From Chiloscyllium plagiosum (Eukaryota), in assembly GCF_004010195.1 (NCBI RefSeq), contig NC_057752.1, positions 11,704,693 through 11,768,692 on the forward strand: 64,000 nucleotides of DNA. Reading direction: 5' to 3'. Shown here piece after piece: positions 3,874-55,129 of this stretch (within the stretch, counting starts at the first letter, position 1; the number at the start of each line of letters is the position of its first letter). The position numbers were made by a program, and so were the translations under genes. The notes below the pieces were generated by a model, which ran no database searches, was not told the origin of the DNA, and saw only the letters and a program-made list of their open reading frames with translations.

Positions 3874-4103
3874 ATTGTTGAGAGTGTGGTGCTGGAAAAG
3901 CACAGCAGGTCAGGTAGCATTCGAACAGCAGGAGAATTGACATTTCGGGCAAAAGCCTTTCATCAGCCCTTCTCATTCCTGATGAAGGGCTTTTGCCCGA
4001 AACATGGATTCTCCTCCTCCTCGGATGCTGCCTGACCTGCCATGCTTTTCCAGCACCACACCCCCGACTCTAGTCTCCAGCGTTTGCAGTCCTCACTTTG
4101 GCC
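3874..4103 (+). mobile_element. Short inverted-repeat PLE-derived element, family A, with degenerate hammerheads on both strands
   Basis: Arms are copies of the Neptune 3' end. CTGATGAAGGGCTTTTGCCCGAAA at 3979-4002, but the cleavage triplet is mutated. Flanking repeat TTGATTGATTA at 3863-3873 and 4104-4114. Confidence 0.8.
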
Positions 4104-11790: not shown

Positions 11791-12065
11791 AAAAAGCATT
11801 GCACTTGGATGTTTCCAAATCAAGCTCAGCTCAGTAACACTATGTTCAAGGTTTGTGTAAAGATTTGTAGCTCAGGTGCTGTTTGCAGTTATTGTGGGTA
11901 TGTTCACCAAGCTGGGAAGTTGGTTTGCAGATATTTCGTTCCCTTTCTAGGTGACATCCTCAGTGCTGTGGAACCTCGTGTGAAGCGCTGCCGAACTGTC
12001 GATTGGAATTTATATGGTTTCATTCCCGTTTCTTCCAGTTGTTTGTTGCAGTGGTCGGTATATTG

Positions 12066-12175
12066 TGTTAGGATCGAGCCCTCCACTATCACCTGATGAA
12101 GGAGCGTTGCTTCGAAAGCTAGTGTGCTTCCAATTAAACCTGTTGGACTATAACCTGGTGTTGTGTGATTTTTAA
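12066..12175 (+). mobile_element. Family B hammerhead-bearing short element nested in a Poseidon-type PLE
   Basis: 12-bp TSD GTCGGTATATTG at 12054-12065 and 12176-12187. Confidence 0.85.
12090..12124 (+). ncRNA. Minimal type I hammerhead ribozyme motif
   Basis: cac-CTGATGA-A-GGAGC gtt GCTTC-GAAA-GCTA-gtg; palindromic AGCT stem III. Confidence 0.7.
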
Positions 12176-12769
12176 GTCGGTATATTGGGTCTAGGTCTAT
12201 GTGTTTATTGATGGAGCCCATGAATGAGTGCCAAGCTTCTAGGAATTCTCTGGCTGCCTTCTGTTTGACTTGACCTATTATTGTTGTGTTGTCCCAGTCG
12301 AATTTGTGGTCCTTGTCATCTGTGCGCAAAGGTACGAAGGATAGCTGGTCGTGGCATTGATGTCTAGTTGATGTTCATAAATGTGGATCGCTACTTGTCT
12401 GCCTGTTTGTCCTATAGAGTGTTTTGTGCAGTACTTATACTATGTTTCTGTAATGGGCAAAATCCCTAGAATTATACAGCGTATCAGGACCAAATTTAGC
12501 ACCATGATTCTGTGACGATCTATCCAGGCCTTGAATGCATCTCCATTCAAGTTGAATTGATGAAAGGTAGTCTCACACCGAGAGCACAGATTTCAATGTA
12601 ATGCATTTTGTCCACTGTTGTATGAGAGCCACTTTGATGAAGGAAAGAACCACTAAATGAACATCCGTACTCTCCACTGTCCTCTCCAAATTTTTCTTGT
12701 TGAAATATTTCTCAACTCCAGTTTATTAAGTTAACATAGATCCTGCTTCCAATGCTATTTCTGGCGTAA

Positions 12770-20634: not shown

Positions 20635-21120
20635 TTTATTACAGTAAGTCCTCACTTCACGTTGCAGTTGTAACTTTAAGTGAAAATTGATTTCCATAGG
20701 AATCCATGTTAAAGACAGAGTTACATTCCTGCAGACAGCTTTTTCTTTTGGGAAAAAATCTTTGTACAGATTCAAATAATGTCCTGTATGTGTATTCCTA
20801 GCTGAAATAACTTGAAACATAAAATTAATAACTAAATATAAAATCTGGGTAGTTAGCTACGTCAGGACATTTCTCAACAGAAAACAACGTGAAAACATTA
20901 AGTTGAAAAAGTGTACATTCCAAAGTACCTATATTCATAAATAAAATACCCTTTAAAATAAAGCCAGCCTCCAAAATAAAGAGGAAATGCAATATATATG
21001 TAATTACTAGACATAAATATTGAGTAAATTCTCTTGAAGTTTTAATTGGCCAGGCTGTATCTAATGGCAAAAGCTGGTCAGTGCAAGCAGAACAATTTAC
21101 ATTGACATATGTCTGCTGTG

Positions 21121-21370
21121 ATTTGGAGGAGCCGGTGTTGGACTAGGGTGGGCAAAGTTAAAAATCACACAACACCATGTTATAATCCAACAGGTTTATT
21201 TGGAAGCACTAGCTTTCAAAGTACTGTTTCTTCATCTGGTGGTTGTGAAGCAGGACCATAAGACACATAATTTATCGCAAAAGATTCCAGTCTCATGCAG
21301 CTGGAATGATATATGGAATAAATCTAGATTTAAGTCTTTCATCTTTTAGAATGAGTTTGCTAGGTTCGGT
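21121..21370 (-). mobile_element. Family B element, longer degenerate copy
   Basis: AAAGTTAAAAATCACACAACACCA... shared with 37339-37549. Hammerhead core decayed. Confidence 0.75.
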
Positions 21371-21496
21371 CTGCTGCAAACTTAAACTGAAACTCGCAGT
21401 GTTAAAATTTTTGACTGTGTTGGTTTTATATTTTTGTCTTATTAAATTTAAATACAGGTTATCTCCATCTAAATGGAGACATTCCAATAACATTCC

Positions 21497-21708
21497 AATA
21501 AAAACAAAATACTGTAGATGCTGGGAATCTGAAACAAACAGAATGCTGAAGAAAGTTAGCGGGTCTGGCAGCATCTGTGGAGAGAGGAACAAAGTTAATG
21601 TATTAAAACAAGTATGACACCTCTTCTACAGAACTAGTTCCAAAGAAGAGTCATACCTGACTCAAAATATTACTGCTGATTTCCTTCAGCATTTTGTGTT
21701 TGTTTCAG
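21497..21708. mobile_element. Family C inverted-repeat PLE-like short element (degenerate hammerhead)
   Basis: Terminus ACTGTAGATGCTGG. AAGAAGAGTCATACCTGACTCAAAA resembles a decayed CTGAAGA-stem-GAAA. Related copies at 45565-45680 and 54620-54745. Confidence 0.6.
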
Positions 21709-25275: not shown

Positions 25276-25563
25276 ATGTTCAAGATGGTGCCGCAGTAGC
25301 AGGACTGAGCCCAGGGCTCGTCCACTCCCATCTGCTTTCTTTCACTTTTCTTTCTTCTTTTTGCTTTTGCTCTTTTTTTTCCTTTTCTTTAAAGCCTGGA
25401 GAATAGCAGGTGAAGGGGGAGGCCTCCTGCAGCAGTAGCGCCAAGTCGAGCCAGACACTGCTCCACCCCAACTTCGGGTCTCCCAGCAAGTGAGAAGCAG
25501 GTCCAGGACTGACTCTCCCAGCCCAAACTCGCAGGCTGAGCTGAGGCTCCGGGTCCATGCCTA

Positions 25564-25903
25564 GGCCCAAGATGCATGAAGGAGCCGTAGCGTTGGCAAA
25601 AGGGATGGAGGACCCCATCGACCTATGGCAGGTAGAAGCATCTGGAGGAGTGATGGATGAGGAACAGTAGGTACGGAACCCGTGCATTCCCAGGCCTGTG
25701 GCTCCAGTTCAGATGTGGTAATTGCAATTGTGAGGCCCAAGATGCATGAAGGAGACGTAGCGTTGGCAAAAGGGATGGAGGACCCCATTGACCTATGGCA
25801 GGTAGAAGCATCTGGAGGAGTGATGGATGAGGAACAGTAGGTATGGAACCCGTGCATTCCCAGGACTGTGGCTCCAGTTCAGATGTGGTAATTGCAATTG
25901 TGA
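25564..25903. repeat. Tandem duplication, 2 x 170 bp
   Basis: Units 25564-25733 and 25734-25903; four substitutions seen. Confidence 0.92.
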
Positions 25904-35894: not shown

Positions 35895-37244
35895 AGTACA
35901 TCTGTTAGGCATGTGTGGATGAAGTTGCAGGGATATCCATTCTTGGCGAATATTCTGTAGAGATGGTGTTCTTCTTCTTGCGTTCATAGGTTGGGAGTAC
36001 TGCAGTGTGTTGCAGCCCTTTTGAAGAAAGTACTAATGCAGGTTCTCTTGTGTGTGTTAGGGTGGTTGCTGTTGTAGTTCAGGACCTGGTCCATGTATGT
36101 GGCTTTCCTGGTGTATGTGACTTTTGTGGTGCATTCACCATTCTGTGTTGTTTGTACTATCACACCCAGGAATAACAGTTGATTGTTAGTTTCTTCCTTT
36201 CTCATAAATCTGATCCCTATGAGTATGGTGTTGATAATCCGGCGTGTGTTCTCGATTTCTGTTCTCTTAATGATAACAAAAGTGTTGTCTACATATCTGA
36301 TCCAGAGTTTGGATTGGATTTGTGATAGGGCTGTTTGTTCCAATCTTTGCATCACTGCTTCTCCTATGAGCCCAGAGGTGGGTGAGCCTGTAGGTGTTCC
36401 ATTGATCTGTTCATGTTTGGTTGTTGAATGTGAAGTGTGTTGTCAAGCACAGGTCTAGTAGTTTGAGTATCCAGTCCTTGTTGATAGGTTCCCCGTAATG
36501 TTGTCTGTTCTGCCTGTCCAGGAAGTTGGCTATTGTCCCTCTGGCTGGAGTTTTGTCAATTGAAGTGAACCGTGCCTGTGGGAGATTTGTTATAACCAAA
36601 GCAGCCATCTTGTCACATGTTAAAAGCCTGGAAACAATTTTAAATCTCATATTAGAGTCTGCTTGTTAAGCTTGTACATTCCCAGGCTCAGTGAGTTGGT
36701 TGACCTTGTAGCTGTACTAACACATGATTGTGAAACTCTTTCCCAGCATGGGAATGTTCTTCTTTTCCAAGAATCTATTGTAATACTAACACTTGCTTAT
36801 CAGATACTAACTAGCACTGTCCAGACACTATGTGACTGGGGCTAGTGACTGGGCAAAGTGTCTACTTACTCATCATACTGCAATTAACAGTTGGTAATTG
36901 TTAAATGATTGTAACCTATACAATCATGCAACTCTCTGTATCTCGTCGGAGTGACTTGTGACCATTGGGTCGACTTGTCTCTTCCCATGAGCTCACGAAT
37001 AAACAGTCAATAACTCGAGGTTTGTGTGGCATGATTCATTGTTCTTCTAAATTGGACCACTACGAGCGAATCACCCACTTCATCATTCATTTCATCCCTG
37101 ACAGTGCCGTTACATCAAATGAGACCATTGCTTTGTTCTTGTCTATGTTTATGTTCTTGATGTTGTCTAAGAATTCTTGTCATGATTGTATGGAGCGTTT
37201 AGATCCGCTAATAAGATGTTGTAGTTTTTGTTGGAGAGAACATT
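35895..37244 (-). mobile_element. Poseidon-type PLE RT region (inverted part, interrupted)
   Basis: Encodes MVSFDVTAL (about 37130-37100), FTSID, LLDLCLTTHFTFN, WIRYVDNTF, LNYNSNHP. Confidence 0.85.
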
Positions 37245-37338
37245 AAGAGAACAGAAATCGAGAACGCACACCAGATTATCAACACCATACTCACAGGGAT
37301 CAGATTTACAAGAGAGGAGGAAACCACTCCCATTCCTG

Positions 37339-37549
37339 ATTTGGAGATGCTGGTGTTGGATTGAGGTGTACAAAGTTAAAAATCACACAACACCAGGTTA
37401 TAGTAGTCCAACAGGTTTAATTGGAAGCACACTAGCTTTCGGAGCGACACTCCTTCATCACCTGATGAGGAGCATTGCTCCGAAAGCTAGTGTGCTTCCA
37501 ATTAAACCTGTTGGACTATAACCTGGTGTTGTGTGATTTTTAACTTTGT
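37339..37549. mobile_element. Family B palindromic element nested in a Poseidon-type PLE
   Basis: 13-bp TSD ACTCCCATTCCTG at 37326-37338 and 37550-37562. About 75-bp arms at 37368-37445 and 37477-37551. Confidence 0.9.
37459..37492 (+). ncRNA. Minimal type I hammerhead ribozyme motif
   Basis: cac-CTGATGA-GGAGC att GCTCC-GAAA-GCTA-gtg. Confidence 0.72.
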
Positions 37550-39629
37550 ACTCCCATTCCTGGATGTGATGGTACAAACAACACAGAATGATGAATGCAT
37601 ACACAAGAGAAGCTGCATTAGTACTTTCTTCAAAAGGGCTGCAACACACTGCAGCACTCCCGACCTATGAAGGGAAGAAGAAGAACACCATTTCTACAGA
37701 ATATTCGCCAAGAACGAAATTCCCAACTTCATCCGCACATGCCTAACAGACAGACAACGCAATGAGGACATGCCATGACCCAACACACTAACCACGCTAC
37801 CTTATATAAAAAAAGCATTTTGGAACTAACAGCCAGACTTCTCTGCCCAATGGGATCCATAACGGCCCATAAACCGACAGCCATGCTTGGGCAACAGCTC
37901 ACCAAAACAAAAGACCCTATCATGTGTAAGACTGATGTAATTTACAGGATTCCATGCAAAGACTGCACGAAACACTATAGCAATCCGCATCCACAAACAC
38001 CAACTAGCCACTAAACGCCATGACCAGCTGTCACTAATAGACATACACACAGAGGACAAGAACCACATTTGACTGGGACAACATAGGGCAAGCTAAACAT
38101 AGCACAGTCAGAGAATTTCTAGAAGCATGGCACTCAGCCGTGGACTCCATCATCATGCACATTGACCTAGACTGGCCACTACAGCAGAAACTGAGCCAAA
38201 TAAATTCCAGAAGAGACAGTACAGCAGTGTTTCACAGGAAGATCCAAAGCACAGAAGATGTCACCTAGACAAGGGGCAAAATGTCTGCAAATCAACTTCC
38301 CAGCTCAGCAAACATACCCACAACCACAATAGTATAAATAGTGCAAGGCGAAAGTTGAAAAGGAATTAGTAAAGCTAAGTGCGCATAAGAATGCATTGGC
38401 TGGCAAAATAAAGGTTTTTTTAAAAATAAATAAAGAGCAAGAGAAAGGCTAAGGAAAGTAGGGACCATCGAGGTAATTTGGACCCAGAAGATGTTGATAT
38501 GATCCTCAATGAGTACTTGGAGTCGTTCTTCACAATGAAAAAGAGCGATGCAGGTAAAGACATCAGGATTGAGCACGGTGAAATATTAGTGTACTACTCA
38601 GTGTCCCCTTCATGGTGGGGAGAGACCTGAATCAATCCGTGATAGTCAGCATGGATTTTTTAAGGCAAGGTCATGTTTGCGATATTTGATAGGACATTTT
38701 GCGAAGATAACCAAGACTGTTAATGAGTTTTTTTTCTACTTGGGCTTTAGCAAGTCTTTTGATAAGGTCCCTCATGGTAAGCCAGTCAAAATAGTAAGAG
38801 CTCTTTGGATCCAATACATGGTGGCACATTGAATCAAAAATTAGCTGAAAGGCAGGAAGTAAAACGGGGTATTTCTGTGAGTCTATAAGTTTCAAAGAAT
38901 GAGAGATGATCTTTGAATAATAAAATTCTGAGGGCCTTTGATATGGTGGGTGCAGAGAGGGTGTTTCCCTTTAAGAAAGAGTCTACCCAAGACGCAGAGT
39001 TTAAAATTGAGTATCCCACTTAAGACGGAGATGAGGTGAAATTCCTTCTCTTCATTTTTGGTCTTTGGATGTCTCTTCCTCAGAGAGCAGTAGAGACTGA
39101 GCATTGAGTTTATTCAAAGTCAAGTCAGAAAGATACTTAAATTATAAGGGAGTTGAGGGTTATTTAGTGGGGTGGGTGGAGGAGGACGTGGTTTTGAGGC
39201 CACAATCAGATCAGCCATGATCTTGTTGAGTGGAGGAGCAGGCTTAATGGACCAAATTATCTACTCTTCTTTCTTACAATCTTATGGAACACACTGCCTA
39301 CGGTGGGCCAGGTGAACATATTAAACCCAGTAGCAGGGCAGCTAAAAAGTTCTCTAACCTGAAAGGTCTTGAGCTTCTGAAGTGTTACTGTCCCCCTATC
39401 TTCCAAGATCTCTGTGTTGGTTGAGATTGTGGACCCTTTGTTAATTGGATTATTGTGCAGATCATCCTCCTGTCTTCCCTGATTGCTCCTGAGTGTCCTA
39501 CTCATCATATATCCTGTTTACAGAACAGTAGTTCTGATTGAGAGATGAGAGGCATTATTAGAATACAAAATTTTAAAATCAAAAACGTTATGAGCGGAAG
39601 ATTATAGGGATCTGAGTCATGTGAGCTAC

Positions 39630-41642: not shown

Positions 41643-41774
41643 GTTCATGCTAAGTGGATAATGGACACTGATACTTTTAATGAATGGATGAATGAGGAGG
41701 ACTATGAGGTGAATGATGACCGGGCACCTGTTGTTCGAAGGAAGAGAATTTCTGCCAAGACATTAACAGAAGAG
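41643..41774 (+). CDS. SMARCC2: SMARCC2 exon 9 (132 nt)
   Basis: gttgaaag|...|gtaatt. Encodes [44 protein letters not shown]. Confidence 0.95.
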
Positions 41775-41834
41775 GTAATTTTTACTGTTGTCCAATTTCC
41801 TTCCTTTATAACCAGTCAGTGATTGGTAGTTTTG

Positions 41835-42053
41835 GGAGAAAGTGAGGACTGCTGATGCTGGAGATCAGAGCTGAAAATGTGTTGCTGGAAAAGCGCAGCA
41901 GGTCAGGCAGCATCCATTCCTGAAGAAGGGCTCATGCCCGAAACGTCGATTCTCCTGCTGATTCCTGAAGAAGGGCTCATGCCCGAAATGTCGATTCTCC
42001 TGCTCCTTGGATGCTGCCTGACCTGCTGCGCTTTTCCAGCAACACATTTTCAG
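41835..42053. mobile_element. Family A inverted-repeat PLE-derived element with tandem hammerheads
   Basis: Perfect 46-bp arms at 41871-41916 and 42008-42053. TSD core GTAGTTTTG at 41826-41834 and 42058-42066. Confidence 0.9.
41916..41996 (+). ncRNA. Tandem pair of minimal hammerhead ribozyme motifs
   Basis: attc-CTGAAGA-A-GGGC tcat GCCC-GAAA-CGTC/TGTC-gatt occurs twice with a 45-nt period. Predicted cleavage after 41947 and 41992. Confidence 0.72.
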
Positions 42054-42552
42054 TGATGTAGTTTTGCTCAATATTGTCTGTTTTTTCCTCAAGATTGTCC
42101 TCTAGATATTTTTCCTCAAGGTAGTTGTTTTAAATTAGATATACTTCAATAAAAACAGATCACTGGAAGTTTTCAGAAGAGATGTTCACTATCATCTATT
42201 ATTTGAGAATAAATCATTTGGTAAATAAATGTGTACCAATTCAAAGCTTAAAGAATCAAATACTGGAGCTTTTTTCATTGCTTTCCCAACAAAATTCAGT
42301 CACTCAATTCTTTATTTGTTCACAGCCATTATCCAGCAGCAGCAAGAAGTTTCTTTTAGGAACTACTTCTGGATTTTGTTCCACCTTAGCCATTGGGCGA
42401 TATGCTTTCACTGACGAACTTCACTTCTTCTGTAACTGAGAGGCATTTCTTGTCTAGAAGTGTAATTACATTTGGTGATTTAGTGCTTTCTGATAGGATG
42501 AGGTTTCACTGGTTATGTGAAAAATTAGTGACTCCTAAACCTTTATTCCAAG

Positions 42553-42668
42553 GTGCACAGCCCAGACTCAGATCGGAGAGATAAGAAGGGAAGCAGTCAC
42601 AAAAAACGGAAACGTTCGCCTTCTCCTTCACCAACTCCAGACTCCAAGAAAAAGAACACCAAAAAAGG
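42553..42668 (+). CDS. SMARCC2: SMARCC2 exon 10 (116 nt), basic NLS-like region
   Basis: ttccaag|...|gtgagg. Encodes [38 protein letters not shown](G). Confidence 0.95.
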
Positions 42669-48227: not shown

Positions 48228-49737
48228 AGGCGAAAGTGGGTACTGCAGATGCTGGAGATCAGAGTCAAGATTAGAGTGGTGCTGGAAAAGCAGCACATCA
48301 GGCAGCATCCGAGATGCAGGAAAATCGACATTTCGGACAAAAGTCCTTCATCAGGAATGAGGCTGGGAGCCTTAGGGGTGGAGATATAAATGGGAGGGGG
48401 TGGGGCTGGGCAGAAGGTAGCTGAGAGTGCATTAAGTGGATGGAGGTAAGGGTAAAGGTGATAGGTCGGAGAGGAGGGTGGAGCGGATAGATAGGAAGGA
48501 AGAGGGACAGGCAGGACAGGTCATCAGGATGGTGCTGAGCTGGAAGTTTGGAACTGGGGTAAGGTGGGGGGAGGGGAAATGAGGAAACTGGTGAAGTCCA
48601 CATTGATGCCATGGGGTTGAAGGGTCCCAAGGCAGAAGATGTTCTTCCTGCAGGCGTCGGGTGGTGAGGGAGTGGCGATGGAGGAGGCCCAGGACCTGCA
48701 TGTCCTCAGCAGAGTGGGAAGGGGAGTTGAAATGTTCGGCCATGGGGCGGTGGGGTTGATTGGTGTGGGTGTCCGGGAGATGTTCTCTGAAGCGCTCTGC
48801 GAGTAGGTGTCCAGTCGCCCCGATGTAAAGAAGACCGTATCGGGAGCAACGGATACAATAAATGACGTGTGGAAGTGTCGGTGAAACCTTGATGGATATG
48901 GAAGGCTTCTTTGGGGCCTTGGACGGAGGTGAGGGGGAGGTGTGGGCGCAGGTTTTGCAATTCCTGCGGTGGCAGGTGAAGGTACCATGAGGGGAAGGTG
49001 GCTTGTTAGGGGGCGTAGACCTGGCCAGGCTGTCGCGGAGGGAACGGTCTTTACAGAAAGAGGATGGGGCAAAGGGGGAGGGAAATATTTCTCTGCTGGT
49101 GAGGTCTGTTTGTAGGTGGCGGAAATGTCGGCGGATGATGCAATGTATACGGAGGTTTGTGGGGTGGAAGGTGAGGACCGGGGGTTCTGTCCTTGTTGCG
49201 GTTGGAGGGGTGGGGTTTGAGGGTGGAGGTGCAGGATGTGGATGAGATGCATTGGAGGGCATTGGTGTGTTCTGTGGTGGAATCGGTCTTCCTGGAAGCA
49301 GATGAGGTGGAGGAATTGGGAATAAGGGATAGCGTTTTTACAGGAGGCAGGGTGGGAGGAGGTGTAATCCAGGTAGCTGTGGGAGTCGGTGGATTTGTAG
49401 AAAATGTCAGTGTTGAGTCGGTCACCGTTAATGGAGATGGAGAAGTCCAGGAAGGGGAGAGAGGTGTCAGAGATGGTCCAGATGAATTTTAGGTCTGGGT
49501 GGAATATGTTGGTGGAGTTGATGAATTGTTCAACCTCCTTGTGGGAGCACGAGATGGCACCGATGCAATCGTCAATGTAGCGGAGGAAAAGGTGGGGACT
49601 GATGCTGGTGTAACTCCGGAAGATAGACTGTTCTACGTAGCTGACAAAAAGACAGGCATAGCTGGGGCCCATGCGGGTGCCCATGGCTGCGCCTTTCATC
49701 TGGAGGAAGTGGGAGGATTCGAAGGAGAAATTGTTGT
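48228..49737 (-). mobile_element. Penelope-like element (Neptune-type): RT, Cys linker, GIY-YIG, 3' end with hammerhead
   Basis: GAAMGTRMGPSYA, RYIDD, LPFLD, YLDYTSSHP; CHRRNCKTC linker; VIYCIRC...YIGATG. Frameshifted. Confidence 0.92.
48323..48358 (-). ncRNA. Minimal hammerhead motif at the Neptune-type PLE 3' end
   Basis: attc-CTGATGA-A-GGAC tttt GTCC-GAAA-TGTC-gatt. Confidence 0.68.
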
Positions 49738-49772
49738 GGACCCCAAGATACCTCTGTTCCTCCACACTGCCA

Positions 49773-50275
49773 AGAGTGATGCAGCTGGCCCACCACTCAG
49801 TTTTAAACAAACCAGAATTTATTTACCCACGAACAAAAGAATTTAGAATACCATAAGTATTTGAAACTCAACCGATAGAAAAATGGAACTCAGCAAAAAG
49901 CTGTTCCGATTTCCTGCAACATTCCATAATGTCCCCTTTGCAAAAAAGGTAAAATCAAACACAGGGTCTTACAGGAGAGATGTCAGAGAGAAATTGCAGA
50001 GAAAGTCAGCCAGAAAACTTCTGTTGAATCCAGGAACTTTGTCCTCAGCTAAAACTTGACCAGAAGCTTCAAACAGGCTCCTTGCTAAAACCAAACAAAT
50101 CAAAACCCTGAACTCTGAGCACGGGCCACTCCCCTTTCATTGTACAAGTGCTTTTAAAAGAAACGTGAAAAGCCTTTTCAAGTAAATATTTCCAGACATA
50201 TCGGAACCTCTGCCGTTTACAACCCCTTTTGCAAGAAAATGACAATGTAACTTTGCTAAAGGAGCACATTGTCAC
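49773..50275. mobile_element. Partial solo LTR, same family as 14950-18024
   Basis: Shares GTGATGCAGCTG...TAAAATCAAACACAGGG...TAAAGGAGCA...CA. Confidence 0.65.
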
Positions 50276-54521: not shown

Positions 54522-55129
54522 TTAAAAAAAATTACACCAGGAACACAAATATTAAAGAAATTAGTTAGTTGCACCATTCATTGTTTGTGCAACAAAACAA
54601 GGGTAAACAACTAAATTAAAAATAAAATATTGTGCATGCTGGGAATCTGAAGCAAACACCATGCTGGTGAAACTCAGCAGGTCTGACAGCATCTGTGGAG
54701 AGAGAATCAAGTTAACATCTCGAGTCCAGTGTGATTTCAGAGCTAAAAGGATTTGGAAAGTGATTTTTTTTTCCAAGTAATTTTGACAGGCAGAGGAGGA
54801 GCAAGGGCTCTGTGTACAGTTTTTAATAATGATGTACAGAATTAGAGCACTTCACCAAAAGAAGAGCACAGCATAGCCAGTGTCTAGCACTGACCAAAGA
54901 TTTGCCAATTAGTTAAAAATATACTTCTGTGGTGGCCCTGTTGTTTATTGCTGCCATTAAAACTTGAACAGCTAAATTGTAATTGTGCAGCAGACCCTTC
55001 AAGTTGCACTACAGTAGATCAGGTAGCAGTTCAAAAAACAATTTTTGATTAGATTATTTCCTATAGCTAAATAAAATGTAAACATCACTAAAATTTTAGC
55101 TTGAAGAGAGAACCTAAATGGGAGAACTC

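Follow-up and report, generated by a model that had tools for sequence, protein, structure and literature searches.

A fold-back Penelope-like element end with tandem minimal hammerheads in a SMARCC2 intron of Chiloscyllium plagiosum

Two minimal hammerhead ribozyme cores lie 45 nt apart within a perfect 46-bp inverted repeat in a 778-nt intron of the Chiloscyllium plagiosum gene SMARCC2. We judge it highly probable that this structure is the folded-back end of a Penelope-like element (PLE) whose hammerhead was likely doubled by a template jump, and that the doubled ribozyme, predicted to be nearly inactive, is likely neutral for splicing. The locus is a passenger stub, one copy of a very abundant transposon end without the character of a locus-specific device, and as a passenger in a normally spliced intron it is of little weight in itself. 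What reaches beyond it is the natural series of ultra-short hammerhead tandems, at least 146 in number and varied in spacer. This series appears to record the stopping point of the Penelope reverse transcriptase (RT), which on uncut RNA is the front edge of stem I, together with the places where the enzyme lands again, and it provides a ready test set for asking whether PLE minimal hammerheads cut unaided when they have a cis partner. A PLE end stub with a minimal hammerhead is of a kind already known; new here are the reading of a single site as type III-like and, for the ultra-short tandems, their number and anatomy. No literature on 40-45-nt hammerhead tandems of this sort was found in a search of article main texts.

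Layout of the insertion in the SMARCC2 intron

The window is the whole stretch of 64,000 nt that was analysed, and element positions are counted from +1, the first base of stem I. The features of the locus are as follows.

41643..41774 (+): coding exon of SMARCC2 that precedes the intron, 44 codons (protein match to human residues 237-280; splice joint in RNA-like contigs)
41775..42552 (+): GT..AG intron with the insertion, 778 nt (spliced RNA-like contigs)
41817..41834 (+): left copy of the target-site duplication, 18 nt (read by eye)
41835..41870 (-): one-sided PLE-end tail, 36 nt, element about +94 to +129, unpaired in the hairpin (element alignment; tail concept from PMC8557442 and PMC11167929)
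41871..41916 (-): antisense arm, element +48 to +93, the left strand of the 46-bp stem, ending short of the hammerhead
41916..41959 (+): first sense unit, element +1 to +44, with core 1 (41920-41947), the scissile bond after C41947, then 12 nt
41960 (+): single extra G at the joint, in neither duplication register; base-paired to C41952 in the model of stem I
41961..42053 (+): second sense unit, element +1 to +93, with core 2 at 41965-41992, in which 41989 is a CpG-type C>T change, and the right stem strand 42008-42053
41943..41991 (+): modelled type III-like cis hammerhead, predicted cut after 41947 (folding model only)
42051..42066 (+): right copy of the target-site duplication, 16 nt, of which 3 nt are shared with the end of the arm
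42553..42668 (+): downstream SMARCC2 exon

A preliminary description of this DNA had reported a 45-nt duplication with two complete cores at 41920-41947 and 41965-41992, and the cores are exactly as it described; the direct repeat (41916-41959 and 41961-42004) is 44 nt long, with a spacing of 45 and a single difference between the units, C41944 versus T41989. The 46-nt inverted arms that it placed around the cores (41871-41916 and 42008-42053) likewise match perfectly and do not pair with them, the antisense arm ending before the hammerheads. Its account of the host intron also holds, since the intron runs from 41775 to 42552 (778 nt, GT..AG) with core 1 lying 145 nt past the donor, and the upstream exon matches human SMARCC2 residues 237-280 with 75 bits, as against 55.5 bits for SMARCC1. 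From the 41947 cut position to the acceptor there are 605 nt. The insertion is surrounded by a target-site duplication of 18 nt on the left (41817-41834) and 16 nt on the right (42051-42066) that differ by a 2-nt indel; the left copy was delimited by eye, the script score being only 9 nt owing to the indel.

This copy departs from the majority sequence at two positions, 41853, where its variant is present in other copies, and 41989, a CpG-type change. These departures fit neutral decay and are too few for a selection test. Four further copies of the same family are found in the window, near 3879, 20456, 48229 and 53872. The preliminary description had overlooked these copies, the target-site duplication and the nature of 41835-41870 as a one-sided tail. 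An Rfam scan of the whole window at gathering thresholds gave 0 matches, the library missing these minimal motifs. The window also contains a 171-nt tandem duplication of 97.7% identity at 25563-25903.

A very abundant repeat family and its parent element

Exact matches to a 32-nt core pattern number 41,891 genome-wide and those to a 32-nt arm pattern 66,367, with 0 for the reversed controls. Anatomy was read from the first 100 arm matches, which all lie in the first 3.6 Mb of one contig and merge into 81 loci, a sample biased towards young copies rather than drawn at random from the genome. Fold-backs account for 39 of the 81 loci. Amongst 41 sampled fold-back arm pairs, one long and one short arm occur in 38, a target-site duplication in 34 and a perfect stretch of at least 46 nt in 21, and because 21 of the 41 pairs reach that length the SMARCC2 stem is average for its family. 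The SMARCC2 stem has a fold z-score of −10.2 and none of 200 shuffles folds equally well; the structure is far above chance for random DNA yet typical of its repeat family. Stem and tandem had been presented as a special arrangement; both recur across the family as products of insertion, and a purpose-built display stem was rejected since such stems are generic. The same count bears on the idea that what matters, if anything, is the 46-bp double strand itself, as a substrate for editing or dsRNA binding or as a loop-out that shortens the intron. In every full-length fold the stem is the dominant feature; with perfect stems at least as long in 21 of the 41 pairs, it is generic. The reads looked at for A-to-I editing in the stem derive from other copies. 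We regard such a role as very unlikely.

The ends of the sampled fragments point to the RNA that was copied. Starts fall at +1 or +2 in 69 of 122 fragments and at the cut site (+33) in one of the 122, from which the template RNA would therefore have been mostly uncut; 3' ends cluster near +90 to +95 and +128 to +132. Three fold-backs (L146, L160 and L167) contain 129-276 nt of other sequence between their inverted arms inside one target-site duplication, a possible capture of host sequence.

Among 28 loci selected on sequence lying past the tail, 8 have the core 160 nt ahead of the ATG of a long ORF, and 20 have a second core 178-524 nt into the ORF. The most informative locus, L098, is a decayed 3.3-kb element with an inverted 5' copy, a direct copy, a last core at ATG+3036 and a broken ORF containing ADKG and YIDD, which we take to be RT motifs. 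The N-terminus may be Poseidon-like. A DKG motif has been reported for PLEs (PMC8557442). Pfam searches of three pieces of the L098 ORF and a PDB search of one returned no matches. The RT part of L098 is 77% identical over 114 aa to an element in the window whose next frame matches GIY-YIG (PF01541, E 2.8e-4), at 21.6 bits and thus below the cut-off of 22.6; the endonuclease region of L098 is an N gap, and GIY-YIG is seen through the sister element only.

At 48229-49846 (minus strand) the window holds a 5'-truncated, broken PLE with RT and GIY-YIG remnants that ends in a sister hammerhead at 48354. Other pieces of Penelope-like families lie at 11889-12393, 21051-21607, 35901-36442, 37241-38323 and 54617-54715, and there is a minimal hammerhead of another Penelope-like family at 12093, a palindrome at 37365-37554 and an RVT_1 match, below the curated cut-off, at 35984-36442.

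Four tested features, namely the pLTR sequence of an element with an RT ORF, an inverted 5'-truncated copy, a one-sided tail and a target-site duplication, identify the SMARCC2 insertion at the level of sequence as the end stub of a PLE, presumably of the EN+ type. The published insertion scheme for PLEs comprises partial tandem pLTRs, an inverted 5'-truncated copy and a one-sided tail of 30-40 bp (PMC8557442; PMC3846280), the tail being explained by two internal start sites of reverse transcription (PMC11167929). Like these complex insertions, ours has an inverted copy at the 5' side, a tail of 36 nt that only one of the arms carries, 3' ends at two points some 36 nt from each other, a target-site duplication and a hammerhead at the front of the pLTR, and in parent copies the ORF starts shortly downstream. 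It differs in having no ORF remnant and in that its partial tandem is only 44 nt, so that the hammerheads are 45 nt apart.

Origin of the tandem

A genome-wide search for short-spacer sense tandems gave 146 matches, and 7 loci, SMARCC2 included, share this exact joint. Tandems that restart at the 5' end form a continuum. Those whose upstream piece breaks off within the core number 471, the two classes that extend slightly beyond the cut site 97 and 146, and the class reaching furthest 48; the patterns behind these counts differ, and the numbers are only roughly comparable. Of the first 30 of the 146 tandems, 29 have a second copy that begins at the 5' end, 25 have 0-3 extra bases at the joint and 17 keep CTGAAGA intact upstream. 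A variant of the stem II loop is shared by both units in 15 of 18 tandems. Joints at +43/+44 were seen in 15 of 30 tandems examined; this cluster is a local hot spot that distance decay alone leaves unexplained, and we infer that its cause is TCC/TTCC microhomology at +43/+44. At SMARCC2 the joint runs from +44 through one G to +1, and G41960 faces C41915 and C42005 in the two 45-nt registers. The base preceding +1 in 50 sampled fragments is G in 8 and C in 35.

Taken together, these sequences are likely best explained by a template jump of the RT at the 5' end of the RNA. A duplication of 45 nt after insertion, by local DNA slippage or repair, would equally leave near-identical units, but neither 45-nt register is clean (G41960 is opposed by a C in each), both units begin exactly at element +1, the same joint is found at 7 separate loci and the second copy goes back to the 5' end in 29 of 30 tandems. 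We therefore consider a DNA-level origin unlikely. Still further down the scale, with an almost negligible probability, is an assembly artefact in the repeat. No short-read contig spans the element; against this, there is a one-base difference between the units, the G at their joint has counterparts elsewhere in the family, the element is connected to both flanks in one contig set (X1) and to the right flank also in contigs of X5 and X10, and a collapsed or looped assembly cannot account for 146 heterogeneous joints.

By a template jump the locus could have been built as follows. The starting material is a 129-nt unit; a 3.3-kb element carries this unit at both ends, and a decayed RT-type ORF lies between them. 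The RT would have started at +93 or +129 and run on until the 5' terminus of the RNA at +1, where stem I begins, and a template copied as far as +1 would therefore have been uncut. In vitro, an uncut RNA template has been reported for an anole PLE (PMC11167929). A G would then have been added at the 5' end, possibly opposite the cap, before the enzyme returned by a jump to +44 and made a second copy of the first 44 nt. A second, inverted cDNA that stopped at +48 would give the 46-bp stem with its one-sided tail, and staggered nicks at the insertion site would have left the target-site duplication.

Three-unit hammerhead tandems are present at L034, L060, L186 and L187. Two loci, L057 (C3:59235684) and L058 (59248904), are 13 kb apart in opposite directions and have the same unusual joint and core variants in different flanks, hinting that one complex copy may have served as template for the other.

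With its two consecutive PLE-derived units, each with a complete hammerhead, the locus resembles non-LTR retrozymes and has the two units that their definition asks for. Retrozyme units are described down to a length of 51 bp (bioRxiv 10.64898/2026.07.22.740005), whereas the unit here is 45 nt, the joints vary by locus and there is no array. We found no sign of the tandem spreading as a family of its own (7 loci with this joint versus 41,891 cores, with heterogeneous joints), and a retrozyme family was rejected because the joints are heterogeneous among loci.

Folding models and the fate of the intron

The preliminary description had classed the cores as PLE-type minimal type I hammerheads, and indeed both units have the conserved core positions C3-A9, G12-A14, A15.1-U16.1 and H17, the extra base before stem II and the G10.1-C11.1 pair. 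Its proposal that ACGU and AUGU can pair in cis is also sound: the palindromic, loopless helix III is intact in unit 1 (ACGU), and AUGU in unit 2 gives one G.U pair. The motif thus resembles metazoan PLE minimal hammerheads (PMC4209133) in its CUGANGA core, the extra base before stem II, the G10.1-C11.1 pair, the loopless palindromic ACGU helix III, the short stem I and the presumed dimer requirement. It differs in its stem II, 4 bp here versus 7-8 bp in Schistosoma families (PMC4209133), and in its natural cis partner 45 nt away, which would give one site a type III-like topology.

That partner had led to the suggestion of a ready-made cis dimer. In the models this is topologically possible, with only the 41947 site plausible, as a type III-like fold in which core 2 acts. 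Helix III (41943-46/41988-91) would have 4 bp, one of them G.U, stem I (41948-52/41960-64) 4 bp plus a U.U mismatch and a 7-nt loop, and stem II (41973-84) 4 bp. The earlier estimate of about 2-3 bp for stem I suits the 41992 site, where core 1 acts and the long stem takes one of those bases, and is too low for the 41947 site. Nearest-neighbour penalties relative to the ensemble are 7.0 kcal/mol (41947), 11.8 kcal/mol (41992) and 13.1 kcal/mol (both), computed by a folding model that has neither tertiary nor Mg2+ terms and is uncalibrated against a known active hammerhead. The 41947 penalty stays between 6.6 and 8.0 kcal/mol at all 16 nascent lengths tried, and in an isolated 53-mer the active fold lies 2.7 kcal/mol above the ensemble. 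The penalty arises because a second palindrome, UCGA, spans the scissile bond and offers a stronger register (−5.4 kcal/mol versus −0.1 for helix III). The ACGU helix III overlaps the UCGA palindrome at 41943-41950 and 41988-41995, and the UCGA register may be a brake built into the whole family. Release of a 45-nt fragment, which had also been proposed, needs both cuts, modelled as 13 kcal/mol uphill, and was rejected since it requires the weak second site at 41992.

Amongst 41 natural joints, the SMARCC2 copy ranks sixth of 35 formable sites in closeness to the active fold (range 3.7-68.8 kcal/mol), because its antisense arm stops before the cores. In the models, L063, L034, L187, L023 and L012 come nearer than the SMARCC2 copy to an active cis fold.

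A U6 snRNA copy (Rfam RF00026, 90.4 bits; L131:1511-1621, C10:45249815 region, minus strand) is joined directly to the base after the predicted cut of a sister-subfamily hammerhead, the sole match to that pattern in the genome. This junction suggests that ribozymes of the family sometimes cut in vivo. In published work, dimeric and trimeric minimal hammerhead constructs cleave weakly (PMC4209133; review PMC6765202), the hammerhead of an anole PLE is inactive without its protein (PMC11167929) and one of nine Xenopus dimers cut (bioRxiv 10.64898/2026.07.22.740005). For the SMARCC2 copy, slow cleavage in a test tube at high Mg2+ is possible though doubtful, and in terms of cutting RNA the ribozyme is predicted to be too weak to matter for the gene.

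Several observations could be read as signs that the duplication made a working cis ribozyme, with the 41947 site cutting a real fraction of SMARCC2 pre-mRNA and so lowering or tuning its output. A loop 1 of 7 nt allows the topology, stem I gains a pair from the extra G, the cores are left uncovered by the antisense arm (hence rank 6 of 35), the 53-mer is only 2.7 kcal/mol from active with all catalytic core bases intact in both units, U6 is joined at the family cut site, and CPEB3 sets a precedent for an intronic ribozyme that modulates splicing (PMC10919898). Against them stand the 7 kcal/mol penalty and the stronger competing register, the G.U wobble left beside the core by a CpG-type change, the normally spliced contigs of two studies, and the absence of any sign of conservation of this copy beyond close relatives. 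The time available also counts against it, 605 nt to the acceptor compared with 9,931 nt and a half-life of 2-3 min for CPEB3 (PMC10919898); with transcription in mammals quoted at 3.5-4.1 knt/min (PMC10919898), 605 nt would amount to seconds at the mammalian rate. We give a working ribozyme only a slim chance. Equally slim is the chance of its broader form, in which template-jump stutter yields self-sufficient type III-like cis ribozymes at well over 100 loci and the SMARCC2 copy, which in the model the short antisense arm leaves free and the 46-bp stem clamps, would cut pre-mRNA at 41947 in cells. Were this true, the locus would be a snapshot of the birth of retrozymes and intronic ribozymes. 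The domesticated intronic ribozymes (RECK, CTCL and DTNB, PMC6155905; the HDV-like CPEB3, PMC10919898) are likewise sense-strand self-cleaving motifs in introns of conserved genes, but they are canonical, fast or deeply conserved, whereas the SMARCC2 copy is a young high-copy stub with a target-site duplication and a CpG-type change.

The preferred reading is a nearly inactive, splicing-neutral insertion. In the pre-mRNA the units would favour an inactive 6-bp UCGA pairing across the scissile bond, with the active 41947 fold a minor species, and after any cut the long stem (−94 kcal/mol) would hold the two halves of the intron together. Exon tethering, in work attributed to Dye et al. in 2006, is said to let splicing survive an intron cut. 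RNA-like contigs from two studies (X5 and X7) join both exons correctly across the intron, although contig depth is no measure of splicing efficiency and is compatible with a cleaved minority. Competition with splicing, as first proposed, thus finds little room: the intron is spliced in two studies, the acceptor follows 605 nt after the cut, and the stem would clamp the halves. Raw reads from one run (X21, 604 reads) cover the exons to a depth of about 5-7, leave the unique intron uncovered and show no accumulation of ends, but they are too thin and of the wrong chemistry for cleavage and weigh neither way; a second run (X22) gave none.

The insertion also appears to have persisted. Of two further organisms, organism C (X14 and X15) yielded no informative contig, and an empty site was seen nowhere. 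In the other, organism B, one contig has its start 28 nt into the right arm and continues through to the flank, with about 98% identity in the intron. Since the right arm is joined there to the same flank, the insertion probably predates the split from organism B.
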